In this document: one piece after another, positions 18,501 through 41,225 of the stretch
Layout of the letters: every line of letters starts with the position of its first letter
How positions within the stretch are numbered: the first letter of the stretch is position 1
Source: Saprospiraceae bacterium
Lineage (GTDB): Bacteria; Bacteroidota; Bacteroidia; Chitinophagales; Saprospiraceae
DNA: 64,000 nucleotides
Assembly: GCA_016715465.1 (NCBI GenBank)
Contig: JADKAA010000027.1
Location: forward strand, 1,548-65,547
Direction: 5' to 3'
Notes under the pieces: generated by a model
What the model was told of the DNA's origin: nothing
The model's database searches: none
The model's input: only the letters and a program-made list of their open reading frames with translations
Position numbers and translations under genes: made by a program

Positions 18501-18545
18501 TTTGCAAAGTTTGCAATGTTTGCAAACTTTGCAGCCTTTGCAATT
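18501..18545. repeat. five in-phase 9-bp tandem repeats, TTTGCAnnn (iteron- or operator-like)
   Basis: The units are tttgcaaag tttgcaatg tttgcaaac tttgcagcc tttgcaatt. The core TTTGCAAA is palindromic. Confidence 0.85.
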
Positions 18546-18711
18546 TCGTCGCTCATGCCCTCAAAACCGTCCTTTGTATGTCAGGCTGAATTCTTGCATT
18601 TCTCTTTTTTTATCAGGTTATTTCCTGCCTTTCTTTTTTCATCTTCCCATAAGTAATAATACCTTCTTATTATTGTTTATGTTTGCCAATATTTGACAAG
18701 TCAACAAATAA

Positions 18712-19020
18712 ATGATGGATAGCCAATTTGGGGAGAAAATACGGGCACTCAGAGAAAAACAAAATCTGTATTTACGACAGGTAGCCCCATTGCTCGAAAT
18801 GGATACAGCCCAACTGAGCAAAATCGAAAAAGGTACCCGGCAACTCAAAAGAGAGCAAATACCCATTATAGCAAATATTCTGAAAACCGATGCTGATGAA
18901 TTACTCACTCTTTGGTTAGCCGACCAGCTTTATGCTGTGGTAAAAGGTGAGAAATTGGCAAATCAAGCCATACAGGTAACAGAGAAGAAATTAAACCTTA
19001 GAAAAAGTAGAAATGACTAA
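18712..19020 (+). CDS. XRE-family HTH transcriptional regulator
   Basis: 102 aa; IRALREKQNLYLRQVAPLLEMDTAQLSKIEKGTR. Its 3' end overlaps the SNF2 helicase start by 8 nt. Confidence 0.8.
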   Translation: MMDSQFGEKIRALREKQNLYLRQVAPLLEMDTAQLSKIEKGTRQLKREQIPIIANILKTDADELLTLWLADQLYAVVKGEKLANQAIQVTEKKLNLRKSRND

Positions 19021-21862: not shown

Positions 21863-21874
21863 TTATACAACAGC

Positions 21875-24800: not shown

Positions 24801-25825
24801 AAGATGTTGAAATTACCCGGCGCTTATATAATAGCAATGTGACGATCATAAATGAAACCGATGATGTTGAGATTAGTAATGAATTTCAAATTGATCTTTA
24901 TTGTGAGGCTTTTAATATGACACGGGCGAGCCATTTATTTAAACAATTTGAAACCCTACAAGAGGAAGGCTACCAATTATCCAAGAACCAATTTCATTAT
25001 TCTGACAATATTTATTTGCCTTTATATGAGTCAAAACTTATTTACTTATTGAATTCACGATATGGCTCATTTAAAAACGTTCCTAGAGAAGTTAGATTTA
25101 ACACAAAAGCTCAACCTATATACTCCACTACAGAAGAACTTAAAAAAACTGATTTTTCTATATTTCCGAGATATTGGGTTAATCAATCAGAAGTAGATAA
25201 GGTTTTCGGGAAATGGACTAATAAAAAATGGTTCTATGGATTTAGAAACATTTGTAGAGGCTTAACAGATTACCGCACTGCTATTTTTTCTGTTATACCT
25301 TATTCTGCGGTAGGTAATTCAATTACATTGATTTTTCCTCGGGAAAATGATTACTCAAATTTTTATCTTTTCATTGCAAATTCAGTATCACTTCCGTTTG
25401 ACTACATAGTTCGGCAAAAATTGGGCGGGTCAAATTTAAACTTCTTTGTATTTAAGCAACTGGCAATAGTTCCGCTTGTAAAATATACACAACGAGTGAA
25501 GGATTTAATTCGAAAAAGTATTGTTGAGATTGTTTGTGATAATGAAGATTTACAGCAATTCGGTGAAGAGTATTTTGAAGAAGTCAGGCTTTCTAATTAC
25601 TCCGATATAAATCGGTTCAATCTGTTTTGTTCGCTAGATGCCATCTATGCCCACCTTTACGGCTTGGAGAAGGAGGAAATGGATTATATCCTGGAAACCT
25701 TCCCTATCGTAAAGCGTAAGGATATAGATAAATACGGCAGTTACCGCACTAAAGAAACCATTTTAAGGCTTTATGATGAGTTTGCCTGGGTAAGGGAGGA
25801 GATGAAGGAAGTCGCCAATAAGTGA
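21875..25825 (+). CDS. large Eco57I/PglX-like N6-adenine DNA methyltransferase (DrmMI-like)
   Basis: 1316 aa with SAM motif VADIACGSGAF and catalytic LLGNPPWEK (24203-24214). Confidence 0.85.
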   Translation: MALSFIKSSGNIITEDFCMALASETKADYVKDKSFGTDMKKVDEVIASTFEKLRERWEENRLNIIDNKFDNSELRNKWIIPFLKSLGYAPKHIGSVSSKSDIEYHIPYKGWDSEYAPVVHMVNSAQDFDTKDKHSIAHSKKSPQDYLQQFLNTTHHQWAILINGKKVRLLRDFYHSITKGFLEFDLESIFETANTEQFRVLFRILHRSRIENQYQGEQVTEYDEEGNPIEVEDNCLLESFHKKSKETGVKVGNKLRDQVIEAIEKLGNGFAENLNPDEFQNGKVKGFYGEILNIIYRLLFLMFAEQKGWLPVRNSIYARTYSLNALREMAEKGNYSHDEEHDLWEGLKITFKLVANGYEFNNGDKINAFGGQLFSDKKIAVIKDLSLKNKFLLDAIYRLSYFKLDNLSNRINYANLAIDELGSVYESLLDYEPKLAKENFTLGKREIKRGEFYLDDRGTDRKTTGSYYTDSRLVAQLIESALVPVIENALKDKTTQAEKEEALLNLKVADIACGSGAFICAALEKLGETLALIRMGDEERPTEDQLREAKRDILLHCIYGVDLNPMALELAKFSLWITASLPDMPLTFLDHKLKCGNSLIGATPELIKKGIPEEAYKPVGNDNPAICTELKRKIRKQLENLNKVNEPQAQYGLQFKRNETDELLRLREALNNRKQEQVSDVDLAEEEYLQLEKMERRFKDWLMADVWTAAFFIKKTETDLLLYPTNATLEQLRENEKVNETLIERVLKTADQHNFFHFHLEFPEVFNKGGFDCLLGNPPWEKVQPEEVKFFKGKDDNISVSKGEIRKKLIEALKQENKLLFYEWEKYKTEIELFSKFIKGSNEYESVKKGNLNTYGIFTVKGINITNSNATWGLIVQSGFATDDTYKTLFTRCIDENLIVSLFDYENKNELFDAERNLRFVLVTFSKCKSDRKIKIKFGLRQPEEILRNDYYFLETTDFKLFNPNTNNCPAFNSQKDVEITRRLYNSNVTIINETDDVEISNEFQIDLYCEAFNMTRASHLFKQFETLQEEGYQLSKNQFHYSDNIYLPLYESKLIYLLNSRYGSFKNVPREVRFNTKAQPIYSTTEELKKTDFSIFPRYWVNQSEVDKVFGKWTNKKWFYGFRNICRGLTDYRTAIFSVIPYSAVGNSITLIFPRENDYSNFYLFIANSVSLPFDYIVRQKLGGSNLNFFVFKQLAIVPLVKYTQRVKDLIRKSIVEIVCDNEDLQQFGEEYFEEVRLSNYSDINRFNLFCSLDAIYAHLYGLEKEEMDYILETFPIVKRKDIDKYGSYRTKETILRLYDEFAWVREEMKEVANK

Positions 25826-25908
25826 TTTTATCACTTAAAAAGCTAAAAAATCCCATATAATTTGTATTTTTTCTCATTTTATTCTATTTTGCGTGAAAAT
25901 ATCACGCA

Positions 25909-27221
25909 ATGCTCATAAGATTCCTCGTCAAGAACCTGTTTTCCTTTAAGGAGCTCACAGAGTTTAACATGCTTCCCGGCAGGTTTAACCGTATGCCTTA
26001 CCATGTGTATGAGGCCGATGGCATTTCGCTGCTTAAACTTAATGCCATGTATGGGGCCAACGGGGCGGGCAAAAGCAATCTTATTAAGGCATTGGCTTTA
26101 TTGGGCCAGTTTGTAGAAACCGGTAATCTTCCTATTGAGCTTTTGATTGAAACCTTCAAGTTCGATAAAGAAAGCCGCAAAAAGGATGTGTACCTCGGTG
26201 TGGAATTTATCAAAGATGAAGTTCCTTTTTATTATGGCATTACCGTTAACCAGGGCATTATTGTAGAAGAGGAACTGCAATTCAGTGGCGTCGGTAAAAA
26301 AGAAGACTACATATTGTTTACCAGAACTGACAAGCCCGATGATAAAGAGCTTCAATTGACCTTTTGTAAAGAGGTAATGGAAGACAAAGAAGCATCTGTT
26401 TTCCCTTTCTTTTTAAAAAATGAAATATTGGAAAGAAACAAGCCTGTATTGTTTCACATGGCCAGCCGCAAGAATAAGGTCTTCGATAATTTCAAAAAAG
26501 CCTTGCAGTGGTTCACACATGATTTAGTTCCAGTAATGCCCAATGCAAGGCCAACGGGTTTAACCATACACCTGGAAGAGGATGCTGGTTTTTATCAATT
26601 TGCATCACAGGTAATGCAGTCGTTCAATACGGGTATTAAAAGCATAAATGTGGATACCATTCCCATTGAAGATTTTTTTGGAGAGGATGATAAGCAGCAA
26701 GCAGAACGCATAACCGCAGAGTTAAAGGCAAATCCCGATAAAATAAGGCCATTCTTAACCGCACATGAAGAAATATTGTTTGTGTTACGGCAAAACAAAG
26801 TGGTGGCAAAGCGGCTGTATTTTTTGCATGATACAGATGGTGGCGAAGCAAAATTTACTGCTGCTGAAGAATCAGATGGCACAAGGCGCTTGCTGGATTA
26901 TTTACCTGCCTTTTATGCAGCCATCAAATCAAAACGGGTGTACCTGGTAGATGAAATAGAAAGAAGCATTCATCCGCTGTTGATTAAAGAACTCATCAAT
27001 AAATTTTCGCATGATGAAAAAACGCATGGGCAATTAATATTCTCCACCCACGAATCAAACTTATTGGATCAAGATATTTTCCGGCCCGATGAAATCTGGT
27101 TTGCCGAGAAGAATAAAGAAGGTGCTACGGAAATATATGCATTAAGTGAGTTTAAAGAACACCACACCATTGACATCAGAAAGGCTACCTGAATGGTCGC
27201 TATGGAGGCATCCCTTTTTAG
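25909..27221 (+). CDS. AAA_15/21-type ATPase (AbiLi/RloA-like); last ~12 codons shifted by an indel
   Basis: Walker A GANGAGKSNL, Walker B VYLVDEIERSIHP and STHESNLLD. The family-typical end GYLNGRYGGIPF is in another frame after 27180. Confidence 0.75.
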
Positions 27222-27250
27222 GGAATTTAAAGACTTAAACTGGGAGAAAT

Positions 27251-27898
27251 ATGCCGAAGCCAACTAAGTTCACCTACGAAAAGAAAGCACCCTTCAGGGA
27301 TGCCTTTCTTTTTATTATTGTTTGCGAAGGCACCAACCGGGAGCCTGACTACTTCCGTTTTTTTGATGGCATGTCGTCCAGAGTAAAGGTAGTTCCGCTG
27401 CAAAGTGTTGGTGGCAGTGCCCCCAATCAATTGGTTGGAGTGGCCTTAGCTGCTGAACAGGAATTATCAGTAGACCCTGCGGTTGATAGGTTGTGGTTTG
27501 TAATTGATACCGACAGATGGCGTAATCATTTACATACCATCAGGCAGCAGTGTGCTCAACATCCTAATTGGCAGGTTGCACAAAGCAATCCCTGTTTTGA
27601 AGTATGGCTTTATTTCCATGCAAAGGCACAGCTGCCAGTATTGGCCAATATTGGGCAATGCAACAACTGGAAGCCTCACCTGCCAACTGTTATTCAGGGC
27701 GGGTTTAACCCGGATTTTCATCCTATTGCCATTGAAACGGCCACGGTAAATGCCAAGGCAGCTTACCAGGCAACGGGTTATTTTCCAGATGCCGGCAGCA
27801 CCCAGCTTTGGGAATTAGGGGAGGAATTGATTCCATTGATTAAAAAGGAGTTGGATGTTTTAAAACATAGGTTTCCGGCACCTGTGGTGATTGGATAG
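27251..27898 (+). CDS. RloB-like protein (AbiLii-like)
   Basis: 215 aa. The N-terminal FLFIIVCEGTNREPDYFRFF matches the RloB hallmark (ivCEGekTEpnYF). Confidence 0.7.
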   Translation: MPKPTKFTYEKKAPFRDAFLFIIVCEGTNREPDYFRFFDGMSSRVKVVPLQSVGGSAPNQLVGVALAAEQELSVDPAVDRLWFVIDTDRWRNHLHTIRQQCAQHPNWQVAQSNPCFEVWLYFHAKAQLPVLANIGQCNNWKPHLPTVIQGGFNPDFHPIAIETATVNAKAAYQATGYFPDAGSTQLWELGEELIPLIKKELDVLKHRFPAPVVIG

Positions 27899-28023
27899 CT
27901 TATTGACCTTAGATCACCTTATTTAGGACACTTGTCTTTTCTTAGACATATTTAAGCAAACTATTGATATTGAGGCTGTTATTTTTTCATGTAAGTTAGA
28001 CAGAAACCTATATTTTGTCAATA

Positions 28024-28070
28024 ATTCGTATTTTAATAGCATAATGTACAATATTCGTATTTTAATACGA
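28024..28070. promoter_or_regulatory. operator-like repeats upstream of the SatD-like gene
   Basis: The 15-mer attcgtattttaata occurs at 28024-28038 and 28053-28067. The second copy contains a perfect palindrome, tcgtatt-tt-aatacga (28055-28070). Confidence 0.4.
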
Positions 28071-28139
28071 TATTTTTGAATTATCTACTTTTTAGCGATA
28101 AATTGTATAATTCGCCAAAAAGAACTATATCTTTAATGT

Positions 28140-28787
28140 ATGATAGTTCTGGGTGCCGTTATTACAGCCGATATTGTTAACTCAACAGCCATGGGCAGCA
28201 AAGCTGCCGGAGAGCTTCGTTCCATTCTGGAGCAGCTGATCAATGCCAACCAAGCAAAATTCCTTTCTTTTTACCGGGGCGACAGTTTCCAAAGCTACCT
28301 GGTGGACCCTTACCCGGCTTACAAGCTGGCCCTCCGCCTTCGTACAGCTGCCCGGATTTTCGAAAATCAGCTTCCGGACATAAAGACCGACCTTAAAATT
28401 TCTATTGGCATCGGCAGCATCGAAACACCGGTAACACAGATAAAAACAGCACAGGGGGAAGCATTTCTGCTATCGGGCAGGGGACTGGATGAACTGGAGA
28501 AAACGGGACGCAGGTTAATTATCCGCTGCGGGGATGAAAAGGTAAACACAACACTGGAAACCATCAGCCTGTTTACCGACTACCTCTTTGACGCCTTAAC
28601 TTATAAACAGGCGGAAGTGTTGCAGCATTTGCTGAACAACCGCACTCAAATAGAAACAGCTAAAGTGTTGGATAAATCCCAGTCAACTGTAAACAGGCAT
28701 GTACAGTCGCTTGGGTGGAAACAGATGGAGGAGTTGCTGAGGCTGTATAACCAAAGCATACAACAAACCACCCCCATAAATGGATAA
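28140..28787 (+). CDS. SatD-family protein: nucleotidyl-cyclase-like N-domain plus C-terminal sigma70-r4/LuxR-like HTH
   Basis: VITADIVNSTAM ... FYRGDSFQ resembles the two metal-Asp motifs of class III cyclases. LTYKQAEVLQHLLNNRTQIETAKVLDKSQSTVNRHV is an HTH. Confidence 0.6.
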   Translation: MIVLGAVITADIVNSTAMGSKAAGELRSILEQLINANQAKFLSFYRGDSFQSYLVDPYPAYKLALRLRTAARIFENQLPDIKTDLKISIGIGSIETPVTQIKTAQGEAFLLSGRGLDELEKTGRRLIIRCGDEKVNTTLETISLFTDYLFDALTYKQAEVLQHLLNNRTQIETAKVLDKSQSTVNRHVQSLGWKQMEELLRLYNQSIQQTTPING

Positions 28788-29487
28788 TGCAATCATTTGG
28801 CTCATCCGGCTGCTGGCCGCACATTTAGTTACCGACTTTGTACTGCAACCCACCAGCTGGGTAGAGGCAAGAAGAACAGCCCACCATAAGGCAAAACAAT
28901 TTTGGTATCACATTTTACTTACTGCACTGGTAGCCGGATGGTTCACCTGTTTCGACACCTGGTGGGTGCCGCTGGTAATACTTGTCAGTCATGGCCTCAT
29001 TGACTGGTGGAAGAGTTATCGGGAAAACAACGTATTGTATTTTGCCATTGACCAGCTGCTCCACTTGCTGGTGATATTTATTATATGGTGGGTCAAATTT
29101 CCTGAAGTTATATCCCTGAAACAGGTGTTCCAGGCTTGTATGGTTGATGAAAAAATATGGGTGGTGGGTATTGCATTGGTATTCCTCACAAGCCCTGTCG
29201 GTATTCTTATCGGTATGATTACAAAATCATTCAGAGACCAGATACCAAACCATAATGAACAAAGTTTGGAAAATGCAGGTGCGTGGATAGGTATTTTGGA
29301 AAGGCTGATCATTTTCTTTTTGGTATTGATTAGTCAATACGAAGCCATCGGCTTATTGGTAGCAGCAAAATCTATCATTCGTTTAAAAGAAGGTGAGCAA
29401 AAAATGAGTGAATATGTATTGGTAGGTACGCTTATCAGTATATCCGTAGCCCTGCTTACAGGCTATATTGTTTCAAAGTCTATTTAG
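28780..29487 (+). CDS. DUF3307-like polytopic membrane protein
   Basis: 235 aa with about 6-7 TM spans and conserved-looking AHLVTDFVLQ and SHGLIDWW. Overlaps the SatD-like gene by 8 nt. Confidence 0.55.
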   Translation: MDNAIIWLIRLLAAHLVTDFVLQPTSWVEARRTAHHKAKQFWYHILLTALVAGWFTCFDTWWVPLVILVSHGLIDWWKSYRENNVLYFAIDQLLHLLVIFIIWWVKFPEVISLKQVFQACMVDEKIWVVGIALVFLTSPVGILIGMITKSFRDQIPNHNEQSLENAGAWIGILERLIIFFLVLISQYEAIGLLVAAKSIIRLKEGEQKMSEYVLVGTLISISVALLTGYIVSKSI

Positions 29488-29492
29488 TTATT

Positions 29493-32400
29493 ATGGATCC
29501 ATTCAAGATATACCAGGAGGTAAAAGATCAGTATTATTCTTTTATCAAAACCTTCCAGGTTTTTAAGAATAAAGAAATTGAGGCCTTTGTTGCAAACGCC
29601 GTGGCCAACAGGCAAATGCTGTGGCAGGAACCTATTATCCAGATTACTAAGCGCTTTAAAAGCGGGTTGACTATAAAGGAACTGATTGCCAAAAAATTGT
29701 TGCATCCGGCAACAGAATCCATTTTTAAAATTGATCCCTATTCACATCAGGAAAAAGCAGTAGACATAACCTGCGGTAAAGAACAAAACCTGGTTGTAAC
29801 CACCGGAACAGGTTCGGGTAAATCGTTGACTTTTGAATTACCGGTAGTAAATTATTGCTTGCATGCAAAGGATAAAGGACTGACGGGCATCAAAGCCATT
29901 GTTATTTACCCCATGAATGCGTTGGCAAACTCTCAATACCAGGAACTGGCTAATAAACTGGAAGGTACTGGGTTAAAGATTGGCCTTTATACAGGCGATA
30001 CAGAGGAAGAGGGAGGAGCTGCTTTAACGGCGTATAAAAAAATATTTGGTGACGATGCAGTTCCGAAAGACTCAGAAATTATAGACCGCCAGCAATTAAG
30101 AAGAACGCCACCTGATATTTTGATCACCAACTATGTTCAGTTGGAGTTAATGTTGACAAGAATACAGGACAACAGCTTGTTTAGTGAAGGAAAGAAAGAA
30201 AACCTGCGTTTCCTGGTATTGGATGAAATACATACTTATAGCGGTAAGCAGGGAGCAGATGTAGCTTTTCTCATTCGGCGATTAAAGCAGAAGACTAATA
30301 CAAAAGGTAAATTGTTATGCATTGGCACTTCTGCTACCATGGTAAGCGATAAAGCTGATGGCAAGTCAAGTGAAGCCGTTTCCGGCTTTGCTTCGAGATT
30401 ATTTGGAGAAGAATTTCTTCCCGAAAATGTTGTCACAGAAGAAGAAGACAAATCAGTTTGGTTTGATGGAAAACGACTTAGCGATAGGATAACAATTACG
30501 GAAGAGGAGTTGAACGCTTTTGACTTACAAAACACACAAACCGCCTTGCCCTTATTTAAGGCAATAATGGGCTTTGAGTATAACGGTGAGTTAAGCAGAA
30601 GAGGACTGGGGGAATCATTAAAAGATTCGCTGTTGTTATCATTTCTCGAACGGTCTTTGAAGGAAGTAAAGGATTTAGGAACCCTTATCCAGGAATATCA
30701 GCAGGGTTATCGTAGTAATGAAACAAAAGATAAATGCCGGATAGAAATTCATGCAGGGCTATTACTCGGTATGGCAGGCACCGTAATATCAGGAATGGGA
30801 AGAGAAGTGCCAAGGTTTGTACCCAAAGTTCATGCATTTTACAATCAGGGCTCAGAACTGAAAGGTTGTTTGATAGATGGATGTGGCTACCTGAGTGATA
30901 CCGGGGAAACTACCTGCCCTAAATGCGAAGAAGAAGGGAGGCCAGAGGCAACCTTATATCCTTTGCACTTTTGCAGAACCTGTGGCCAGGAGTATTACGG
31001 AATGACTTATGATAAAGACAACGGTAAAACAACACCCTGGAGTTTTAACGATGATAAATCCAAAGGGATTGCCGGGTACTATTCCAAAGAACATAAAGAA
31101 ACATCAACCGACCTTCCTGAAAATTGGCTTACTCCCAAGAAACGAGAATTAAAGAGCCAGTATAAAGATAGAAAACCATTATTAGGCAAATTGGATTCTA
31201 CAGAAAACAGGTTTACACCTTATTTTGAAGACGAAGAAGAGCGGGGAACATTGGTTCCGCAACCATTACCCTATTGTTTAAATTGCCGTACTTATCATTC
31301 AGGCGCATCAACGGAATATTCAAAGCTCTTCCAGCTCAATTCAGTAGGCAGGGCAACCGGTACAGACGTTATTGTAAGTGCTTCATTAAATGCCTCACCC
31401 AAGTTAGAAAGAAAAGTAATTGGGTTTACCGATAACCGGCAGGATGCCGCATTTCAGGCTGGGCATATGGATCACTGGTATAACCAGATATATTTCCGCA
31501 GGGCATTGTATAACATCTTAAAGGATCAGCAGGATTACATTCCGGTTAATGAACTTCCCAAGTTGCTATATCCGCTAATCATTCATGACGAGTCTAATAT
31601 CCCATTTGTCCAGAGAAGAATTTTCAAAAATAAATTTCTGGAATACCTTGAAACATACCTGTATGTAGAAATACGGGGAACCAAACGATTCATATCAATT
31701 AACCTGGAGGATGTTGGCTTATTAGAAGTCGGATATGAACAATTGGCGGAAGCCATCAACCAGCCTGAAATTGAAAAATTTGACTTCTTAAAGCACATAT
31801 CAAAGCCATTGTTGCATGACTATGTCAAAGGTTTTCTTGAAATATTCCGGAGAGAAATGGCTATCGGTCATTCTAACTTAATTGACAGGGCAACTTTCAA
31901 ACAGCAAACAATTAATGTTATTCAAAACTATGCTCCCGAAAAGCGAATATTTGAAGCGGTAGAGGATACAAATGTGGGGGTATTTACAAATGCTGATAAA
32001 GACACATTTAGATTTAGTGATTTCACCTTCCATGCGTTGGATAATTCAAGGGCATTAACTACATGGATAAAAAAGTGCTTTGAGCTTGAGCACTCACAAC
32101 AAATTGTTTCCTTAATTCAGGAAACAATTTCCTTCCTGAAGCAGATTGGATATATCACCTTACAACGGTTTAAGGGACATGACATATACTACCTTGACCC
32201 GGTAATGATTTTAGTGAAAGCTCCTAAACAGGAATTTAAAAAAGAGTGTAAAAAATGCGGTTCAAAATACAATTGGAATGAAGTAAACTACTGTCTTAAA
32301 TCAACTTGTAAAGGAACACTGGAAGAAGCAAAGCTGGAAGAGAATTATTACTACCATCAATACACCTTGCCTTTTGATGGTTCAGAGAATATTGTTTCGG

Positions 32401-34648
32401 AAGATCACTCAGGTCAGGTGGATGGCCAAACGAGAAAGGAAAGAGAAAACAAGTTTAAGAAAACTCCCCCGAGATTCAATTTCTGGTAGCTACTCCTACA
32501 ATGGAGTTAGGCATTGACATTGGTACGCTTTCTTCCGTGTATTTGAGGAATGTTCCTCCAAGTCCAAGCAATTATGCTCAAAGAGCTGGTAGGGCTGGTC
32601 GTAGTGGCCAGGGCTCAATTGTGCAAACTTTTTGTGGTAGCGGTCCGGGAAGAGGAGCACATGATCAATACTATTACAGGCGTCCAGTTGAAATTGTATC
32701 AGGTAAAATTGCAGTACCAAGATTTAATCTCTCCAATGCCTCCTTATTTTCTGCACATATTAACTCTTTGGTTTTACAGGTTATATCAGAAAAAATCTGG
32801 GCACGGCCATCAGAGTTTATTGATTTCAGCGACTTTAATGAATTGCCTGTTATCAACAGTTATCTTGAATCATTGCTAAAGGCAGTTCAGGATAATAAGA
32901 CGAAGATTTTGCAGAACATAAAAGAAGCTTTTGGAAAGGAAATAGAGGATTCTGAAAGACAAATAACATGGAATGAGGTGGAGGAACAGATTGGGGAGTT
33001 TGTTTACAGATTTGACAGGGCTTTTGATAAAATGAGAAGTGATTACCGGGAATCACTAAAAGAAATTCTCGAAATCAATAAAATGAAAATTGATGATAAA
33101 GCCCATGACTTTGTGCTTTCAAGCCGGAGAGAAGCATTAGAAAAAAGGAATGAAAATATTAAAAATGGCAAGGAAGAATTTTATGTGTACAGGTATTTGA
33201 GCCAGGTGGGTTTCTTACCAAATTATGCATTTCCTCAAAAGGTCACTTCCATTAAATTCCTCCACCAAAAGGAAGAGGAAGAGTTGGTACGAGACCAGAA
33301 TATTGCTATCAGGGAGTTTGCTCCTCATAATACACTTTATTTTGGTGGGTTGAAATATGCGGTACAGTATGTAAGTAAAGAAACCGACCCAAATAATGTT
33401 ATTAGTACGGCAGTTTGTCCGGACTGTGAGCATATAGAATTACTCTCCAATTCGAGTCCGTTTCCCACTAATTGTCCTAACTGTGGTACAGTTTGGGAAT
33501 CAAACAGACCCTTCGCTGCATTGAAATTTCCAAGAATGAGAGGAGAAAGAAGAACGAGGATTACCGCCGATGAAGAGGAGAGACTGAAAGGTGGATATAA
33601 GATTATAAACAGCTATAAGCCTACTTCCAAAGCAGTTGTCAAAGAGATAAAGATGAATGGGAAACCCATCTGTAAACTGGCATTTGAAAGGAGTGCTCAG
33701 ATGCGTCATTTAAATATGGGGCAGATGGCAGATTATTCCGAACAACGCATTGGATTCAATCTTGATCCGGTAAATTTCAAATGGGTGCAGTTTTCCAAAC
33801 TGGATGAACACTGCAAAGAGAAGAATCTGAGCAAAGGCCAGATGCGAACAAATGTCTCGCTGCTTACGGAGTCAAAGAATGATGTTATTGTCCTGCAATT
33901 AACAGAGTCCTTTGTTGGTAATGAAGAAATATTTGCCAAAACCCTTTTAAACGCTTTTATACAAAGCCTTTGCACCGTATTGAATCTGGATGATGATGAG
34001 ATCAATGGTTTATACCAGCCCATTCTGGGGCAAAATGGAAAGATGATTATTTATGAGACTTCAGAAGGGGGAACTGGAACGCTGTCTGCAATTGCAAATG
34101 ATATTCATTTATTGAAGAGAATAAGCAATAAGGCATTAGAATTACTGCATTTTGATGCTCAGGGTAATGATGTTGAAGGAGCTTGTTTGAAATCCTGTTA
34201 TTCCTGTATTTGCAATTTCTATAACCAGAGAGACCATAGATTATTTGATAGGAGTACCGTAAAAGATTTCCTGCTTCAGCTCACTGTTACAGATGATATG
34301 TCCTCTACTATTGACGACAATGTTCAATTCGATACGTTTATGCAACATGAACTTTCTACACTGGAGAAAAAAGTTCTGGTTGTGATGAAAGAGATAAAAA
34401 TTAGAATGCCTGAAGAACTGCATAAAATTATCTTTAAAGACGATGACCCCATTGCTGAAGCGGACTTGTTTTACAACCCCAAAATATGTGTATTTATTGA
34501 TGGCCCTGATCATGATAAAGAACATATAAAGCTGGATGATGAAAGAAAAAGGACAAAGTTGAAGAAATTGGGGTATAAAGTAGTGGTGATTCATCATGCC
34601 AACATACAAAAGGGAATTGAACTATTACAAGCATCTATCATAAACTAA
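29493..34648 (+). CDS. fused DEAD/DEAH helicase + DUF1998 (DrmA-DrmB / DruE-like) + C-terminal DUF559/Vsr-like endonuclease domain; 1-nt indel at the C-run 32464-32468
   Basis: [20 protein letters not shown], then across the break ...[21 protein letters not shown] and [10 protein letters not shown]. Zn-ribbon CPDCEH..CPNCG, EGGTGTL and [19 protein letters not shown] are DUF1998 marks. [19 protein letters not shown]...[17 protein letters not shown] is the DUF559-like part. Confidence 0.8.
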
Positions 34649-34674
34649 ATTTGTATTAATTGTAAATAAATTTG
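34646..34674 (+). promoter_or_regulatory. two Bacteroidetes -7-type boxes (TAnnTTTG) in the 41-bp gap upstream of the pAgo gene
   Basis: TAAATTTG occurs at 34646-34653 and 34667-34674. The second is about 16 nt upstream of the TTG start at 34690. Confidence 0.4.
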
Positions 34675-34689: not shown

Positions 34690-36741
34690 TTGCAAACCCT
34701 TCAACTCAATATCATCCCCTTCGCCCCACCGGCCACAACCAAAACCTTTGCGTTTTACAAAGAGTGGTTCCAGGGTGCGTATGCGGTATATATCAGTGAA
34801 GAGCTGTTGCCGGTAGTGCAGCATTTTCACAAACCCGACCCTGCAAAAGCAGAAACACATTGGTTGTACAGCGATTTTCTGCCGCTTCGGGATGGAGGCA
34901 TAGAGTTGGAGATCGACCTAACGGTACACTTGCAGTTTGCGGAACATTATTACCGCTTTTTAATCAGTAATCACTTCCGGGATATCGCACCCATCATGCG
35001 GCGCAATTTTACGCAGGAAGTAGAATTGTGGATGTTCGATACCACACTCAAAGGCAAAGAGTACAACCAATACTACAAGTTTACATTGGCAGTGCAGCAC
35101 AGCATTCATAAAACACCTGAATTGATTATATCCTATGACGGCAATTCAAGAGTACTTAAAAAGAGTATGGCAGAATTGCCGGGCTTAGACACCCTGATTT
35201 ATCGCTGGATGAATTACAAAGGGCTGCTTTACCATTGGGGCGAATCTTTTCCTGACGAAGCATTACGCAACCAGCATGAAGTATTTCCTGTAATCAGCAA
35301 CGAATTAGGAACAGAACTTGAAATCATTTTTCCAAAGTCAGATAGGGATAACCGATACCCAACCTTTTTCAAACTCATTACCGGTTTTTATACCAAGTAC
35401 CTGAACAATGATGATTTCAGGAAAGTGATTCCCCTCTCACCAGATGGCTTTTTAATAAGGAACGAAGGCGAGTTTCATCGCATTGATTCCAATGCCAGTT
35501 TACTGGAATACGGAAATAAAGGAACCGGAATCGATCCGCACAACGACATAAAGGAGTATGGTCCATATAAAACAATTGAGCATCCACATAACGTAAAATT
35601 GTTTTTTGTCTATCAAAAATCTGATGCAGCCATAGTAAAGAATTTAAAAGACTGCTTCGATAATGGCTTCAAAAATGCACAGTCATTAAATGAATATGTA
35701 AAACTTCCTTATACCTATAAAGATGAATGGAGTATTGCATTTGATAGCCTGAATGATGCTGTTAAAACCTGCTATCATGCTTTAGAAAACAGGCAAAAGG
35801 AACATAATGTAAGGTATCTGGTAATTTACCTTAGCCCGGTTTCAAAAGATGATGCTACGCAGGAGGAAAAAAGAATTTATATCCGGTTAAAGGAAATGTT
35901 CTTGTTCTATGGCTACCATTCACAGGTGGTATTCAAAGGCAAGGTCAGCCGGGCGGATTTCAATTTCGCACTGCCAAACATACAAATAGCCATGCTGGCT
36001 AAGCTCGGAGGTGTTCCCTGGCGGCTTAACCGGGAACCTGCAAAGGAGCTCATCGTTGGTATTGGGGCTTCCAAAGTCCGTTTCGCCAAAAGCAAAATGC
36101 TGGGCTCTGCCTTTTGTTTTGACAACGATGGAAAGTTCCGGCATTTCGATTGCTTCCCTGCTGATAATACACAAGCCCTTTCAGTTTCCATCCGGCTCGC
36201 CCTGCTTGATTTCAGAAAGAAAAATCCGGAAGCCAAACGGCTGGTTATTCACTTTTATAAGCTCATGAGCAAAAAGGAACTGAAACCGGTGCTGGATATG
36301 CTCTACGACCTCAAAGTGGATATACCGGTCATTATTTTAACCATCAACAAAACAGTATCAAAAAACATATTAGCCTTTGATATAGCCGCCCCGGACACTA
36401 TGATGCCCTTAACCGGCACCTATGTTCAGATAGCGGAAAGGCAGTATTTGCTGTACAACAACATCCGTTACACAGAAAACTCTTTTGTCAAGAAAACGAA
36501 ATACCAGTTCCCGGTAAAAATTAAGATGACCTCAACCCAACTTGAATTGTTGGATGACCCGGCGCTGGTCGATTTACTGATTGACCAGGTATATCAATTT
36601 AGTCGTATGTACTGGAAATCTGTTGCCCAGCAGAACCTGCCGGTAACCATCCTGTACCCCCAGATGGTGGCCGAGATATTCCCCTTCTTCAAAACCCCGG
36701 TTCTTTCGGATTTTGGGAAGGAGACGTTGTGGTTTTTGTAG
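34690..36741 (+). CDS. prokaryotic Argonaute (pAgo), catalytically inactive, with reduced or absent PAZ (long-B-like)
   Basis: The PIWI C-terminus is QNLPVTILYPQMVAEIFPFF...GKETLWFL. A MID-like YIRLK..SQ..AKLGGVPWRL is present. The slicer positions read GIGAS (36058-36069) and HFYK (36249-36260) instead of GxDx and HRDG. Confidence 0.8.
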   Translation: MQTLQLNIIPFAPPATTKTFAFYKEWFQGAYAVYISEELLPVVQHFHKPDPAKAETHWLYSDFLPLRDGGIELEIDLTVHLQFAEHYYRFLISNHFRDIAPIMRRNFTQEVELWMFDTTLKGKEYNQYYKFTLAVQHSIHKTPELIISYDGNSRVLKKSMAELPGLDTLIYRWMNYKGLLYHWGESFPDEALRNQHEVFPVISNELGTELEIIFPKSDRDNRYPTFFKLITGFYTKYLNNDDFRKVIPLSPDGFLIRNEGEFHRIDSNASLLEYGNKGTGIDPHNDIKEYGPYKTIEHPHNVKLFFVYQKSDAAIVKNLKDCFDNGFKNAQSLNEYVKLPYTYKDEWSIAFDSLNDAVKTCYHALENRQKEHNVRYLVIYLSPVSKDDATQEEKRIYIRLKEMFLFYGYHSQVVFKGKVSRADFNFALPNIQIAMLAKLGGVPWRLNREPAKELIVGIGASKVRFAKSKMLGSAFCFDNDGKFRHFDCFPADNTQALSVSIRLALLDFRKKNPEAKRLVIHFYKLMSKKELKPVLDMLYDLKVDIPVIILTINKTVSKNILAFDIAAPDTMMPLTGTYVQIAERQYLLYNNIRYTENSFVKKTKYQFPVKIKMTSTQLELLDDPALVDLLIDQVYQFSRMYWKSVAQQNLPVTILYPQMVAEIFPFFKTPVLSDFGKETLWFL

Positions 36742-38117
36742 GGATAACTTCGGATAACTGGGTTAATAATAGTTTTGACAAAGTAAAAATAAAGGACATA
36801 GTGTTTATTTCAGGAAATAACATAACCTTCTCTTATCAATCTGATAAGCAAGTACTTAATAGTATTGGTTTTTCACTGGATAAGGCCGACACTTTAGCTA
36901 TTGTTGGTCCCTCTGGGTGCGGAAAATCCACATTATTACGCATTCTCTCAGGATTGTTATCAAGTTCTTCAGGAAATCATTTGACTGGTGACGTGGTAAT
37001 AGACAGCCTTACTTCAAACGAGTATAGGGAAACAGGTAAACTGGCTTTTATGTTTCAGGATGCTACACTTCTGCCTCACCTTTCCGTAAGGCAAAATATA
37101 GGACTGCCATTGAAAATAAAAGGCATTGATGAAAACGGAAAAGTCGAAAGCCTGATTAAGGCAGTTGGTTTGGAAGATGCTGCTGATTATTTGCCCAAAC
37201 AATTATCAGGTGGTATGAGAACAAGGGTGGCTTTGGCAAGGGCTTTTGTAACAGAGCCTGAACTGTTATTACTGGATGAACCATTTTCAGCTTTGGACAT
37301 TGCTTGGAAAAGCAAACTGTACATAGAACTTGAAGAACTCAGAGAACTATATAATACTACCGTAATTATGGTTACTCATGATGTACAGGAAGCCATTTTG
37401 CTTTCCGATAAAATAATTGTACTAAACCGATTTGGACAAATACAACCTCCGGAACATCCTGTTGTGTCCACAATGTCTCATTCAGAACGAGTAAATAACA
37501 TTAGTGGATTTCTGCAACAGGAGCACTACCAAAAACTATTTGTCTCAATTCAGGACATTATCTTAAAAGATGGTAAAAGATTCAACATATCAAAAAAAGA
37601 AGCGCTGCATCTTATTGATAATATCATCCGGATAGCAGGAGACGAAAGAAACGAAAAGTCTTTATCTAAAAACGAATTGGATGCAATAAGAGATTTTTCA
37701 AATGATGTTGAAATAAACGCAAAACTGTTAACTGCCTTTGCTAAAGCGGAAACAGACTACCTCAAATACCAGCTTATTTGGGATATTCTTGAATTTGACG
37801 CACTGCCTGGGTCAGTACATGATGAAATATTTGCTTACTATTTTAAAAATATTGAAACTTTCTCCGAATACTCAAGACAATGGTATGCTCTGCATGACGA
37901 TGAAAGATTTTTTAATATTCTTAAAGGAAGAATTGAAAGCAATAAAGGATATAACTCAAAAAAGAAATGGATTTATTTGTGTGACTTGTATGCAGTAAAG
38001 AAATTACCTGAATTAAGTTCCTTTCTTGAAGATGTAATTGAAGCCAAAATAGAACAGTTAAATTATCCATTTGCTAAAGAGGTCGCAAAACAGGTTAAAG
38101 CAAAAATTAAAGAATGA
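36729..38117 (+). CDS. ABC transporter ATP-binding protein (NitT/TauT-type) with a ~210-aa uncharacterised C-terminal extension
   Basis: GPSGCGKSTL, LSGGMRTRVALARAF and LLLLDEPFSALD. The start is either the GTG at 36729 (overlapping the pAgo stop) or the GTG at 36801, which gives more typical spacing to Walker A. Confidence 0.8.
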   Translation: MVFVGITSDNWVNNSFDKVKIKDIVFISGNNITFSYQSDKQVLNSIGFSLDKADTLAIVGPSGCGKSTLLRILSGLLSSSSGNHLTGDVVIDSLTSNEYRETGKLAFMFQDATLLPHLSVRQNIGLPLKIKGIDENGKVESLIKAVGLEDAADYLPKQLSGGMRTRVALARAFVTEPELLLLDEPFSALDIAWKSKLYIELEELRELYNTTVIMVTHDVQEAILLSDKIIVLNRFGQIQPPEHPVVSTMSHSERVNNISGFLQQEHYQKLFVSIQDIILKDGKRFNISKKEALHLIDNIIRIAGDERNEKSLSKNELDAIRDFSNDVEINAKLLTAFAKAETDYLKYQLIWDILEFDALPGSVHDEIFAYYFKNIETFSEYSRQWYALHDDERFFNILKGRIESNKGYNSKKKWIYLCDLYAVKKLPELSSFLEDVIEAKIEQLNYPFAKEVAKQVKAKIKE

Positions 38118-38854
38118 AGAATAAGATACTTTACATACTGCTTGGTGTCCTGTTGTTGGTTGCATGGCAATATTTTGGAAGCACCAGCCAAACGGTGAGG
38201 CTGTTGCTTTCTTCTCCATCGTTAGTAGCAAACTATTTTGGAGAGAATTATACTGCACTGTTACAGGCATTGCAAGCTACTTTTATTGAAGCTGTTGCTG
38301 GTTTATTGATAGCAATTATTTTCAGTTTTGGAACCATGATACTTTGTTTTCATTTTCCGAAGTTGATGGATTTTGTATTACCCATTATGATAACATCACA
38401 GGTAATACCATTGATTGTGTTAGCACCTTTTTTTATTATTCTTTTTGGCATTGGCCTGAGTTCTAAAGTTGCGATGGCGGCCCTAATGTGTTTCTTTCCA
38501 ATCTTTGTAAATTTTGCTCAGGGTTACAAGGCTATCAACCAAAACATCCATGAACTTATGCACATTTACAATGCGGGTACATGGACAAGAATACGACAAG
38601 TGTATTTCCCTCTTTCTATGCCCAGCATAATGGCAGGTTTGAAAATAAGTGCAACGCTGGCAGTGATTGGGGCAATTGTGGCGGAGTTTAACGGAGCAAA
38701 AGTTGGGTTAGGAAAAAACTTATACTTAGCTGCAAAACGATTGGAACCTGATATGATGATGAGTTCTTTGTTGCTTTCGGCATTACTTGGCGGTGTGGTC
38801 TATCTCTGTATAAGTATCATAGAAAATAAATTAGGTAAATGGTACAAGGCGTAA
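38114..38854 (+). CDS. ABC transporter permease (binding-protein-dependent inner-membrane component)
   Basis: 246 aa with about 6 TM spans and an EAA-like loop (YNAGTWTRIRQVYFPLSMPSIMAGLK). ATGA overlap with the ATPase gene. Confidence 0.75.
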   Translation: MKNKILYILLGVLLLVAWQYFGSTSQTVRLLLSSPSLVANYFGENYTALLQALQATFIEAVAGLLIAIIFSFGTMILCFHFPKLMDFVLPIMITSQVIPLIVLAPFFIILFGIGLSSKVAMAALMCFFPIFVNFAQGYKAINQNIHELMHIYNAGTWTRIRQVYFPLSMPSIMAGLKISATLAVIGAIVAEFNGAKVGLGKNLYLAAKRLEPDMMMSSLLLSALLGGVVYLCISIIENKLGKWYKA

Positions 38855-39543
38855 ATACATATTGGACAAAAGAAGCTGGTGATTTTCATAAAATTGATAA
38901 TGTAGAAAGGGATATTCTATTGCCTTATGTGGCTCAGATAATTAATGATTTAAATCCGAAAAAACTACTTGATTATGGTTGCGGCAGTGGTTATTTGGCT
39001 TGGCTGATTAAAAGGAATACTGAAATTTCATTGTACGACATTAATCCTCAGGTAATAGATGAATATCAACAATGGAATATCACTAACGTTGTGATTCCCG
39101 TAAAAGACAAAAGCCAGATAAGGGACAATTATTACGATGTAGTAGTGCAGACATCTGTATTAATGTGTGTTCCTGTAATTGAGGGAATAAGAGAGATTTT
39201 TAAAGACAATTATACGGCATTGAAGTCAGGCGGGAGCCTCGTAGTTGTCATTACACACCCTTGTTTTCTGCAATATCATTTCGGGCACTATTATACATCT
39301 CTCAATCAAGACAACTTTAATTACTTGGAGAACACAACGAAGTATCAGGTGTATATGAAACAGCCTGATAAAAACCCTATTGTATTCACTGACTATAACT
39401 GGAACTTATCAACTATAATAAATGAAATTATCAAGGCAGGATTTTCACTAACTAAAATGGTTGAGCATCCTGATTTAAAATCAAAATATTTTGAACCTAA
39501 TAACCTTGTATCGCCTTGGTTATTTTTAATCGCTAAGAAGTAA
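38839..39543 (+). CDS. class I SAM-dependent methyltransferase
   Basis: LLDYGCGSGYLAWL (motif I), DVVVQTSVLMCV, GGSLVVVITHP. Confidence 0.7.
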   Translation: MVQGVNTYWTKEAGDFHKIDNVERDILLPYVAQIINDLNPKKLLDYGCGSGYLAWLIKRNTEISLYDINPQVIDEYQQWNITNVVIPVKDKSQIRDNYYDVVVQTSVLMCVPVIEGIREIFKDNYTALKSGGSLVVVITHPCFLQYHFGHYYTSLNQDNFNYLENTTKYQVYMKQPDKNPIVFTDYNWNLSTIINEIIKAGFSLTKMVEHPDLKSKYFEPNNLVSPWLFLIAKK

Positions 39544-40249
39544 ATGAGTTTTAAAGACACATATTGGAGCACAGAGGAAGTAGAACGGCTGTATAAAGCG
39601 GAAAATCCCGAACAGGCTATAATACAACCTATCATAGCCAAACAGGTTGTGGAGTTGAACCCTGCACATATACTTGATTATGGCTGCGGTGATGCTTATA
39701 TGGCTAAAATTTTACCAGACAACATCAACATTGATTTATACGACAGAAACCAACAATCTTTAGAAAAGTATTTCAAACACTTAATAAGCCAAACTGTAAA
39801 AGATTGTATGATGAAAGTGATTTTCAAAATGATTTTTACGACTGCATAGTTTTAAGTTTTGTATTGTGTGTGTGGATAGTTTGGAAGACCAATACAGAAT
39901 TTTAAGAAAACTTAAAACCGCTTTAAAAAAATCTTCGGGAAGGTTGATTATTACCAATTCTCATCCTTGCTTCTTACAGTATGAGTTTACCGCTTTTAAA
40001 ACAAATCTAAGTCCTGAAAATTTCAATTATTTCAATAACGGAATTCCGTATGAAGTTTCTATAAAACAACCCAACGGAAACCCTGATGTAACCTTTACAG
40101 ATTACCAATGGCAATTATCCGTTTGGATAAATATGGCTATTGAGTGTGGCTTTGCATTGCAGGAAATGATAGAAGTTACCGACCAACCTTACAAAGATTT
40201 AAATGAAAACAAATTATATCCACCATTTTTAATACTAAAATTCAAATGA
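39544..40249 (+). CDS. class I SAM-dependent methyltransferase, tandem paralogue of the previous gene; frameshifted around 39780-39870
   Basis: ILDYGCGDAYMA in ORF 39544-39849. SGRLIITNSHPCFLQYEF...TFTDYQWQL in ORF 39866-40249 parallels ITHPCFLQYHF...VFTDYNWNL of the paralogue. Confidence 0.65.
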
Positions 40250-40250
40250 T

Positions 40251-41225
40251 ATGAAACGACTGATCATACTTCTTCCGTTCATTTTAGCTCTTCTGGTTGG
40301 TTGCGACAACCACAGGCGAGGAGATATTCAAAAAGTAAATCTTCGCCAGGAATGGTTTGCCAATGCGAGTTATTTGGGGGAAGTGGTCGCCATTAATGAA
40401 ACAGATTCGTTGAACGGATTGGATATTAACCTAATTGAAGGGGCCGACGATGTTGACCCGATTAAAATGGTGATTTCGGGTAATGATAAATTTGGTGTAT
40501 GTGGGGCCGACAGGGTTTTTACTGCAAATGAAAACGGGGCTGATTTGGTCGTGATTGGTGTAGTGAACTATATAAACCCAACAGTCTTTATAGCTAAGGA
40601 AAATTTAAATGTTCGTATGCCTAAAGATTTTGAAGGTAAAAAGGTTGGTGTATTTACTGGTAATAATACCGAAATGATATACCGTACATTGGTGAGAAAG
40701 GCAGGCTTGAACAAAAACAAAATAACAGAAGTGGAAGCACCTTTTGATTTGGGTTCTTTCATAGCAGGTGCTTATGATATAAGACCAGCTTACATTTTTG
40801 ATGAAACAGTTTCTTTAGATAAAGAAGGAATCAAATACACAGTTGTAAAACCACAGGATTACGGAGTTTCATTTATTGGAACTGTATATTTTACTAAACG
40901 AAGTACAATTGAGAAAGAACCTGACCTGGTACAGGAATTTATTAATTCAATAGCACAAGGTTGGAAGATCGCATTGAATAATCCTGAAAAAGCACTCAGC
41001 TACTTAGCAGCCTACAATAAGACCATTGACATAAACAGGGAAAGGGCGTCATTTAAAGCAGGGATTGATTATTTCAGGGGTGAAAATGGCAAAGTGCTGA
41101 CATCTGACATTCAGAAATGGAAACAAATGGGTAGCGACTTAAAAGATTTAGGTGTTATCAAAGCCTTTGATGCGGATAAGTTTATTAATAGCACTTTTAT
41201 TAATAAATATCACGACAAAAATTAG
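40251..41225 (+). CDS. ABC transporter substrate-binding lipoprotein (NMT1/THI5-like)
   Basis: 324 aa with a lipobox (ILALLVGCDN) and overall SsuA/NMT1-like architecture. Confidence 0.65.
   Translation: MKRLIILLPFILALLVGCDNHRRGDIQKVNLRQEWFANASYLGEVVAINETDSLNGLDINLIEGADDVDPIKMVISGNDKFGVCGADRVFTANENGADLVVIGVVNYINPTVFIAKENLNVRMPKDFEGKKVGVFTGNNTEMIYRTLVRKAGLNKNKITEVEAPFDLGSFIAGAYDIRPAYIFDETVSLDKEGIKYTVVKPQDYGVSFIGTVYFTKRSTIEKEPDLVQEFINSIAQGWKIALNNPEKALSYLAAYNKTIDINRERASFKAGIDYFRGENGKVLTSDIQKWKQMGSDLKDLGVIKAFDADKFINSTFINKYHDKN

Follow-up and report, generated by a model that had tools for sequence, protein, structure and literature searches.

The window analysed here, a stretch of 64,000 nt from contig JADKAA010000027.1 of the Saprospiraceae bacterium assembly GCA_016715465.1, carries on its forward strand a gene for a prokaryotic Argonaute (pAgo), preceded by a large helicase gene and followed by a gene for an ATP-binding cassette (ABC) ATPase. 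A preliminary description had presented the protein as a catalytically dead pAgo with no canonical partner effector next to it, and had left both flanking genes as candidates for that role. The observation proved correct and the interpretation half right: the gene is part of the backbone of integrative, self-replicating mobile elements of Bacteroidota, neither flanking gene is a dedicated effector of pAgo, both being interchangeable cargo, and the arrangement has already been described in the literature. The features of the locus are collected in Table 1.

Identification and domain structure of the pAgo

The pAgo open reading frame (ORF) begins with a TTG codon, the earliest start possible, and the resulting N-terminus, (M)QTLQLNIIPF, fits the family consensus MxQxLQLNIIPF. 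The protein has a Pfam Piwi match (E = 6e-12, residues 392-663) and is covered end to end by the PADLOC pAgo model PDLC02385 (E = 4e-227). An alignment with 24 relatives (42-87% identical) was used for the residue comparisons and as the input for an AlphaFold2 (AF2) model (pLDDT 85.6, pTM 0.80). The top match of this model in a Foldseek search of the PDB was full-length RsAgo (5awh_A; E = 2.5e-26, TMq 0.71), with other full-length Argonautes and PIWI proteins ranking behind it; there were 171 matches at E ≤ 0.001, and the 50 listed were all Argonaute or PIWI proteins. When the PDB was searched by sequence, the long-B proteins AfAgo (3e-25), EcAgo of the BPAN system (2e-20) and RsAgo (5e-14) surpassed the long-A protein AaAgo (2.5e-7) by at least seven orders of magnitude. 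One member of the family, the pAgo of Chitinophagaceae bacterium IBVUCB2 (locus L060; WP_086102656.1), which is 43% identical to that of the window, has been catalogued as longB and YK-putative, with a "small" PAZ domain at residues 158-238, MID at 292-454 and PIWI at 455-674 (Ryazansky, 2018; PMC6299218). These matches place the window protein with the long-B rather than the long-A or short pAgos.

The preliminary description had held that the roughly 300 residues preceding the MID domain were too few for a complete N-L1-PAZ-L2 arrangement, which was overstated. In the AF2 model, the ~295 residues before MID hold N, L1, a reduced PAZ (PAZ*) and L2; the PAZ* position, flanked by the L1 hairpin and the L2 helix, is filled by just ~65-80 residues forming three short strands and two short helices. 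Since the model aligns with RsAgo over its full length and the L060 protein is catalogued with a small PAZ, the domain is reduced and not missing, and the reading "PAZ missing" was dropped on these grounds. TtAgo, a protein of 685 amino acids, has a full PAZ, so the overall length of the window protein is unremarkable.

The predicted 5'-end pocket of the MID domain is of the YK type (Y397, within Y397-I-R-L-K401, together with K401, Q412, N430 and K438), and these residues are invariant in 24/24 relatives. The slicer tetrad of the PIWI domain (PIWI*), on the other hand, is lost. As had been pointed out before, two of its positions are substituted: G459, in the motif GIGAS, stands at the expected D1 position and Y523, in the motif HFYK, at the expected D2 position, both being invariant in the 24 relatives. 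The fourth position is occupied by Q658 (YPQ instead of YA[H/D]), and the glutamate-finger region (A491-D492-N493) is not conserved among the relatives. RsAgo likewise has G at the first catalytic position in a pairwise sequence alignment with the window pAgo. By interpolation, the coordinates of the HMMER matches of AaAgo and Siwi put G459 within one residue of the first catalytic Asp of these two proteins. Further residues invariant among the relatives are G457, A460, H521-K524 and the C-terminal LWFL. A DEDX tetrad hidden at shifted positions, which would have overturned the earlier description, was considered and rejected: none is visible, because the sole invariant acidic residues of PIWI*, E453 (far end of strand 1) and D632 (late helix), both lie off the catalytic positions of RNase H. 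The predicted loss of the slicer site is thus common to the window pAgo and all 24 aligned relatives.

The Pfam and PADLOC matches and the invariant residues bear out the earlier identification of a 683-residue ORF with a PIWI C-terminus and a MID pocket. The structure prediction that had been proposed as a check did not confirm a missing PAZ; a dead active site was supported, by alignment at the level of motifs. In summary, the ORF is an intact, slicer-dead long-B pAgo with the layout N-L1-small PAZ*-L2-MID-PIWI*, in which the guide pocket is preserved.

Table 1. Features distinguished in the window (positions in nt of the window; aa, amino acids)
Feature	Position	Strand	Basis and remarks
Tyrosine integrase	13045..14265	+	Pfam Phage_integrase, SAM_5, Arm-DNA-bind_5; 69% identical to integrase cluster of related loci
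DUF6617-like backbone gene	14262..15758	+	tblastn to cluster c8; DUF6617 on cluster representative, no Pfam match on window copy
Excisionase-like HTH_17 gene (Xis)	15848..16144	+	tblastn to related loci, Pfam
Fused BT4734_N (VirE_N; AEP-type primase-polymerase, PrimPol) and DUF3987 helicase	16062..18488	+	Pfam E = 7e-37 and 4e-59
Variable cargo between backbone and pAgo	18712..29487	+	Helix-turn-helix (HTH) gene, then defence and other genes; Pfam, PADLOC
DrmD-like SNF2 helicase (cargo)	19013..21622	+	Pfam, PADLOC
DrmMI-like/Eco57I-type methyltransferase (cargo)	21875..25825	+	Pfam, PADLOC
AbiLi and AbiLii (cargo)	25909..27898	+	Pfam, PADLOC
HTH protein (cargo)	28140..28787	+	Pfam, PADLOC
DUF3307 protein (cargo)	28780..29487	+	Pfam, PADLOC
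DruE-like superfamily 2 (SF2) helicase with MrfA Zn-binding (DUF1998) region and weak DUF559-like end	29493..34648	+	One gene of ~1713 codons in two ORFs
Two TAAATTTG boxes, Bacteroidota -7-type	34646..34674	+	In 41-bp spacer; at 34646 and 34667
Long-B-type inactive pAgo gene	34690..36741	+	683 aa, TTG start
Reduced PAZ* (approximate)	35158..35403	+	aa ~157-238; boundaries inferred from L060 annotation and AF2 model
MID domain	35572..36024	+	aa ~295-445; limits after homologue annotation; AfAgo and RsAgo alignments span the region
PIWI* domain	36025..36738	+	aa ~446-683; slicer tetrad lost
ABC importer operon	36729..41225	+	ATPase, permease, methyltransferase, two small ORFs, NMT1/THI5 solute-binding protein
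Relic of a second, different pAgo gene	54939..55072	+	Last 44 codons plus stop
MkoA-like (Mokosh) superfamily 1 (SF1) helicase ORF	57407..59035	+	C-terminal half of the ~1290-aa gene of related loci

Mobile-element backbone

One genome per species was scanned, which gave 487 tblastn-confirmed loci encoding relatives of the window pAgo. The best 80 of these 487, all from Bacteroidota and almost all with a full-length pAgo, were examined: every ORF within 9 kb of each pAgo was clustered and the recurrent clusters were annotated. The abundance of the family and the near-universal full length of its members point to purifying selection. Two metagenome contigs, L081 and L082, were considered in addition to the genome loci.

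A conserved order of genes on one strand was distinguished, composed of (i) an integrase gene, (ii) a DUF6617 gene, (iii) an HTH_17 Xis-like gene, (iv) a PrimPol-DUF3987 fusion gene (~750 amino acids) and, often, (v) a small HTH gene. This backbone is followed by variable restriction, toxin or defence cargo, then by pAgo, and then by a second variable cargo region containing heavy-metal efflux genes, regulators, Mokosh-like genes or transporters. The entire backbone is present in the window (13045..19020). Its PrimPol-DUF3987 gene, a single ORF of 808 amino acids (62% identical to cluster c1), is the equivalent of the AgaPP and AgaPH genes of published clusters (see below), and is separated from pAgo by eight genes, which appear as nine ORFs because of a frameshift.

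In 38 of the 62 eligible loci a PrimPol-DUF3987 gene lies ≤10 kb upstream of pAgo, always on the same strand; this proportion (61%) is a lower bound, the flanks being of 10 kb and the distance in the window itself 16 kb. The two genes are 1.3-16 kb apart, with freely exchanged cargo between them. The divergence of pAgo correlates with that of PrimPol-DUF3987 (r = 0.30, p = 0.001) and of DUF6617 (r = 0.81), whereas no significant correlation was obtained with the cargo gene hsdR (r = 0.14, p = 0.065). We conclude that pAgo belongs to the backbone of a group of Bacteroidota mobile elements that integrate and replicate themselves.

A second tyrosine integrase gene (window 11412-12632, minus strand) lies divergently beside the integrase gene of the element, which suggests an adjacent or tandem integrated element.

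Genes adjoining pAgo in related loci

No neighbour family exceeds ~12% across the 80 loci, and neighbouring genes differ even among closely related pAgos. The commonest family immediately upstream is type I HsdR (9/75), followed by DUF5655/NucS-like, IrrE/HigB, type III Res, RhuM, type IIG, Fic and Bro-N proteins. Immediately downstream, the commonest cluster is an MkoA-like helicase (7/74). In a Pfam search of 61 immediate downstream neighbours, AraC came first (10 members) and SF1 helicases were found in 6-8 cases. Among the 25 Pfam families matched by most of these 61 neighbours there was no SIR2 or TIR and no shared bAgaN-type nuclease, GmrSD (3 members) being the sole nuclease family. Effectors of the BPAN, BPAS, BPAM or short-pAgo type were not found with two or more members among the 61 neighbours, in a screen confined to proteins with Pfam domains. 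In the window itself, Pfam and PADLOC revealed beside pAgo neither a SIR2 or TIR effector nor a nuclease or membrane protein of these types.

The earlier statement that no canonical effector adjoins the gene therefore holds, both for the window and as a common feature of the 61 downstream neighbours; the closest homologues do not sit beside a standard effector either, so that this reading survives. The survey of homologous neighbourhoods which had been suggested thus yielded no standard effector, and it gave no support to either flanking gene as a partner. A conserved adjacent partner is lacking.

The helicase gene upstream

The preliminary description had placed a helicase-DUF1998-nuclease gene 41 bp upstream of pAgo. 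The gap and the domains were confirmed (PADLOC DruE matches at E = 1e-56 and 1e-58; Pfam DEAD, Helicase_C, MZB and a weak DUF559), whereas the supposed whole gene, 32501..34648, is the C-terminal part of a longer one, the remainder of which is the ORF 29493..32489. Compared with the intact orthologue in locus L001, the gene is split by the loss of a single C from a homopolymer run near 32466 (window 32455-32470), and the frame switch falls after ENKFK, in the helicase motif V region. The intact orthologues encode 1733 (L001) and 1718 (L081) amino acids. The frameshift reflects either a real pseudogene or a homopolymer error of sequencing or assembly.

When the window neighbours were used as tblastn queries, the DruE-like helicase was found next to pAgo in one of the 80 genome loci (L001, whose pAgo is 94% identical) and was absent from that position in the other 79. 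It also adjoins pAgo on the metagenome contig L081 (97% identical pAgo), where the upstream block with the intact helicase gene is retained and the downstream genes differ from those of the window. On L082 (88% identical pAgo), the genes on both sides differ. At pAgo identities of 88% and 82%, restriction genes (type IIG or type I-like) take the upstream position, and at ≤88% the neighbours are other restriction, toxin or regulator genes. On the look-ups in the closest relatives and the tblastn survey of the 80 loci, the helicase was rejected as a partner of pAgo.

The DrmD-like SNF2 helicase and the DrmMI-like/Eco57I-type methyltransferase (19013..25825) resemble, together with the DUF1998 helicase, a DISARM/Druantia-like composite; the AbiLi/AbiLii pair and the HTH and DUF3307 pair sit inside this gene set, on the same strand.

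The 41-bp spacer between the helicase gene and pAgo contains two boxes of the form TAnnTTTG, which had been described as the gene's own. Their presence was confirmed; as a feature of the family they were not, since such boxes precede pAgo in 2/73 other loci, as against 2/73 in a control. The spacer between the upstream gene and pAgo in the relatives has a median length of 26 bp and is usually without the motif. A conserved private promoter of pAgo was accordingly rejected, the boxes being lineage-specific. TAnnTTTG is under-represented window-wide (44 occurrences, compared with 86 expected from shuffles), yet it occurs twice in this spacer.

The importer operon downstream

The ABC ATPase ORF (36729..38117) overlaps the pAgo ORF by 13 nt if the GTG at 36729 is taken as its start, as had been noted; a box TAGTTTTG at 36770 precedes an alternative start. 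The operon that this gene heads is an ordinary NitT/TauT-type importer, cargo and not a partner of pAgo. An ABC ATPase is the immediate downstream gene in 1/74 other loci, and the window and L001, 87% identical over the preceding 11 kb, cease to be homologous exactly at the pAgo stop codon, 36741. On the neighbourhoods of the relatives and the importer context, the ATPase was rejected as a partner. With the helicase gene being confined to near-identical relatives and frameshifted, neither of the two candidate effector genes could be upheld.

The C-terminal ~230 residues of the ATPase (37430-38117) form an extension without a Pfam match. Beyond the operon, the region 41228-48473 contains ORFs of 519, 404, 155, 177, 637 and 515 amino acids on the same strand, in a stretch of lower GC content (0.32-0.35). 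No Pfam match was obtained for the four large ORFs and no PADLOC match for those of 519, 637 and 515 amino acids; the run could be an undescribed cargo system.

The 3' end of pAgo and the Mokosh-like genes

The sequence that follows the pAgo stop codon is unrelated in nearly every one of 79 loci, whereas the last codons, TGGTTTTTRTAA, are highly conserved. In the window, a second pAgo gene has left a relic on the same strand, 18.2 kb beyond the resident gene. This relic is 73% identical at the amino acid level to residues 640-683 of the resident protein, and over its final 33 nt it matches without a difference the 3' ends of pAgo genes of the L027/L017 type, which are followed by an MkoA-like helicase gene. 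Other 3' relics were found downstream of the intact gene in three loci (L065:13287-13371, L077:12398-12570 and L079:21899-21988). They are ~72-170 bp long and all end at or just past the stop codon; in L079, the duplication also takes in the beginning of the FUR-like gene that comes next. Because such relics recur, in four loci, and homology breaks at the stop codon, cargo exchange has repeatedly had its boundary at the pAgo 3' end, which might even be a site where cargo modules preferentially recombine or insert.

The relics may have arisen either by site-specific insertion or as promoter-bearing fragments retained after recombination. The 18-kb segment between pAgo and the relic may be a self-mobile insert, although the relic lengths of 72-170 bp fit the retention of a promoter-bearing piece of the old gene equally well. 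Among the ten ORFs of this segment that were scanned, no integrase or transposase was found. The pAgo 3' end was rejected as the attachment (att) site of the element itself, there being no copy near the integrase end and the sole other copy lying at 54939.

A ~1290-aa MkoA-like helicase is encoded directly after pAgo in L016, L017, L019, L027, L036, L037 and L041, and 3.3 kb away in L066. The genes that follow it vary: PLD in L036, PIN in L017 and a DarT-containing protein in L016. A PIWI protein grouped with a PLD nuclease and a helicase resembling MOV10L1 is reminiscent of the PIWI-interacting RNA (piRNA) machinery, and the grouping may equally be coincidental defence-island cargo. In the window, the interval between the relic and the MkoA-like ORF (55089-57339) holds ORFs of 354 and 409 amino acids that overlap by 44 nt in different frames; neither gave a match in Pfam or PADLOC. 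The summed length of these two and the MkoA-like ORF is that of a full MkoA-like gene, of which the three may be a fragmented copy.

Possible mode of action

We favour, with a probability of roughly 0.55, a stand-alone, RsAgo-like pAgo belonging to a mobile-element family, with flanking genes that are cargo and a guide-directed binding activity that would benefit the element without a dedicated effector. The protein would load small 5'-phosphorylated guides in its YK-type MID pocket and, once loaded, base-pair with the nucleic acid of plasmids, phages or rival elements that enter the cell. Being unable to cut, it would interfere by binding, through occlusion of replication or transcription; alternatively, the target might be handed to non-dedicated nucleases, whether host enzymes or the restriction or helicase-nuclease cargo of the element. 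Interference of this binding type has been proposed for the stand-alone long-B RsAgo, the beneficiary here presumably being the carrier element.

Several points weigh against this interpretation. RsAgo-like interference is an analogy and not a result, and the members of the pAgo subclade are known from sequence alone. The tetrad positions were mapped by motif and coordinate alignment, not by residue-by-residue superposition on an active Argonaute. The clade assignment at this node is not unanimous: the table of Ryazansky (2018; PMC6299218) calls the pAgo of Seonamhaeicola sp. S2-3 (WP_076701676.1; 700 amino acids, PAZ 157-238, MID 292-457, PIWI 458-680) longA, and those of IBVUCB2 and Algoriphagus sp. 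XAY3209 longB despite near-identical domain limits. Linkage to the backbone was not seen in 24 of the 62 eligible loci. The MkoA-like helicase directly downstream of pAgo in seven loci could be a genuine partner in that sublineage, and it is possible that an effector of the element acts in trans or from a non-adjacent position, for example DUF6617 or the PrimPol-helicase.

Of the explanations that involve an adjacent gene, a two-gene system resembling DdmDE, in which the guide-loaded pAgo would recruit the DruE-like helicase-nuclease to shred the target, is very improbable. Such a system has a precedent in DdmDE itself, where a pAgo-like protein acts with a helicase-nuclease (10.1101/2024.05.10.593530), and the two window genes are close together on one strand; moreover, the helicase has an MZB domain and a weak DUF559 match, and the pairing persists, with an intact helicase gene, in the two closest relatives. 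On the other side stand its absence beside the remaining 79 pAgo genes, with restriction genes in its place as soon as pAgo identity falls to 88% and 82%, the frameshift in the window helicase gene next to an intact pAgo gene, and the lack of any PADLOC DdmE match to pAgo at E ≤ 0.01. The helicase also has plausible partners other than pAgo, since the DISARM/Druantia-like set, with its DrmD-like and DrmMI-like genes 8-15 kb upstream, sits on the same strand. A role of the ABC ATPase as an effector or sensor partner has next to nothing to recommend it. The two ORFs are on the same strand and overlap or lie close together, and the ATPase has, besides its Pfam-less C-terminal region, weak PADLOC matches to the defence ATPases mad3 and AriA; however, the permease and NMT1/THI5 binding protein genes behind it mark a standard importer, the box at 36770 suggests a separate start, an ABC ATPase gene directly follows pAgo in a single other locus of 74, and L001 and L081 have other genes in its place.

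Action at a distance within the element is easier to envisage, if still doubtful. The pAgo may work with the PrimPol-helicase, whose primers would become guides, or may act at replication intermediates. The same-strand linkage of the two genes in at least 61% of the eligible loci and in the window, the correlated divergence, and the reported co-evolution of pAgo, AgaPP and integrase together with the synthesis of DNA and RNA primers by AgaPP (Fu et al., 2025; PMC11724360) are all consistent with such cooperation. The correlation is modest, however, exchangeable cargo separates the genes, and co-inheritance on one element accounts for linkage and correlation without a functional tie. In addition, primase products carry 5'-triphosphates, in contrast to the 5'-monophosphate that a YK-type MID pocket typically binds. 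A broader proposal, that pAgo is no stand-alone defence gene but a functional core component of the elements and acts with element enzymes that need not be adjacent, appears unlikely to us; it takes two forms. In one, guides or substrates would come from the PrimPol-helicase, and guide biogenesis would then have a new route. In the other, a PIWI protein, the MOV10L1-like MkoA and a Zucchini-like nuclease would cooperate in bacteria much as the piRNA machinery does in animals; this form applies to the sublineage with MkoA followed by a PLD, PIN or DarT gene, an arrangement of which the window keeps a relic (54939..59035). Abortive infection of the BPAN, BPAS or BPAM type, triggered through a non-adjacent effector in the genome or the element, is distinctly unlikely. 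EcAgo of BPAN is among the closest characterised relatives by sequence, and most long-B pAgos studied act through abortive infection with an effector (Song et al., 2023; PMC10620215); against this, no nuclease, SIR2 or membrane orthogroup is conserved beside pAgo in the 80 loci, the effector-bearing subclades are separate from the VirE_N-linked one (PMC10620215), and abortive infection has been judged less likely from the gene context (PMC11724360).

Inactive long-B pAgos with a neighbouring toxin-like effector are now understood, whereas the subclade borne by integrase/PrimPol elements has no visible effector. The window excludes the immediate neighbours as partners, its pAgo behaving as a backbone gene between two cargo regions, and natural variants with and without the helicase-nuclease or the Mokosh helicase beside pAgo exist. 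If the subclade silences rivals by binding alone, or uses the primase of the element, the modes of Argonaute immunity and of competition between elements would be broader.

Comparison with known Argonaute systems

RsAgo is the protein most similar to the window pAgo in structure: it is the top full-length structural match, and shares G at D1, a YK-type MID and a reduced PAZ. It differs in being ~95 amino acids longer and from another phylum, with ~15% identity in the structural alignment. It reportedly acts without a characterised dedicated effector, and a mobile-element backbone has not been reported as its context. AfAgo (Archaeoglobus fulgidus AF1318) provides the best sequence match in MID-PIWI (3e-25), with a shared C-terminal region ...LPVT..YP..VA..., but is a MID-PIWI protein of 427 amino acids, whereas the window pAgo has its own N-L1-PAZ*-L2 half.

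The likeness to DdmDE of Vibrio cholerae, an inactive pAgo beside a large helicase-nuclease, is superficial (10.1101/2024.05.10.593530). Here, the pairing is confined to near-identical relatives (one of 80 genome loci and L081) and is thus not a conserved, co-inherited one; the helicase is frameshifted and DruE-like (DUF1998), not DdmD, and neither a DdmE nor a DdmD model is among the PADLOC matches in the window.

With BPAN, BPAS and BPAM, named for long-B subclades linked to a nuclease, a SIR2 and a membrane protein, respectively (Song et al., 2023; PMC10620215), the window pAgo shares membership of a clade of inactive long pAgos, and EcAgo, which acts with the nuclease bAgaN, is among its PDB matches (2e-20). 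These systems are operons of two or three genes in which the effector lies directly downstream of pAgo and co-evolves with it (PMC10620215). In the family of the window pAgo, by contrast, what lies downstream varies, none of these effector families being conserved there, and in the window no og_15 nuclease, og_44 SIR2 or og_100 membrane effector lies directly downstream in a two- or three-gene operon. The same study set apart another long-B subclade linked to a VirE_N protein (og_54), as well as pAgos without a partner, and left both for future work; with the clusters reported by Fu et al. (2025; PMC11724360), this shows that the premise of the preliminary description, by which every inactive pAgo reported to date works with an effector encoded next to it, was too narrow.

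The clusters of Fu et al. (2025, NAR; PMC11724360) contain an integrase, the PrimPol AgaPP and the DUF3987 helicase AgaPH, with a long-B pAgo 2-8 genes downstream, amid defence genes that are often exchanged. Their authors concluded that the clusters derive from mobile elements and that abortive infection is less likely, leaving the function of pAgo open. The window has in common with these AgaPP-associated clusters, as represented by Seonamhaeicola sp. S2-3, (i) a Bacteroidota host, (ii) an integrase, a VirE_N/BT4734_N PrimPol and a DUF3987 gene upstream of pAgo on the same strand, (iii) a pAgo gene that follows these after several others, among them HTH and defence genes that vary, and (iv) an inactive pAgo of ~690-700 amino acids with a small PAZ at ~157-238. 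The Seonamhaeicola pAgo is likened here through domain limits near those of the L060 protein and nearby rows of a PAZ* alignment, not through direct sequence identity; the rows of these two proteins are a few apart, among Bacteroidota pAgos of the same gapped layout. The differences are that no tRNA gene lies within the 64 kb of the window and that AgaPP and AgaPH, two genes in the published clusters, are fused. With eight genes between PrimPol and pAgo, the window stands at the top of the 2-8 range (PMC11724360). The locus is thus an instance of the published AgaPP-associated long-B pAgo arrangement and not a system of a new kind.

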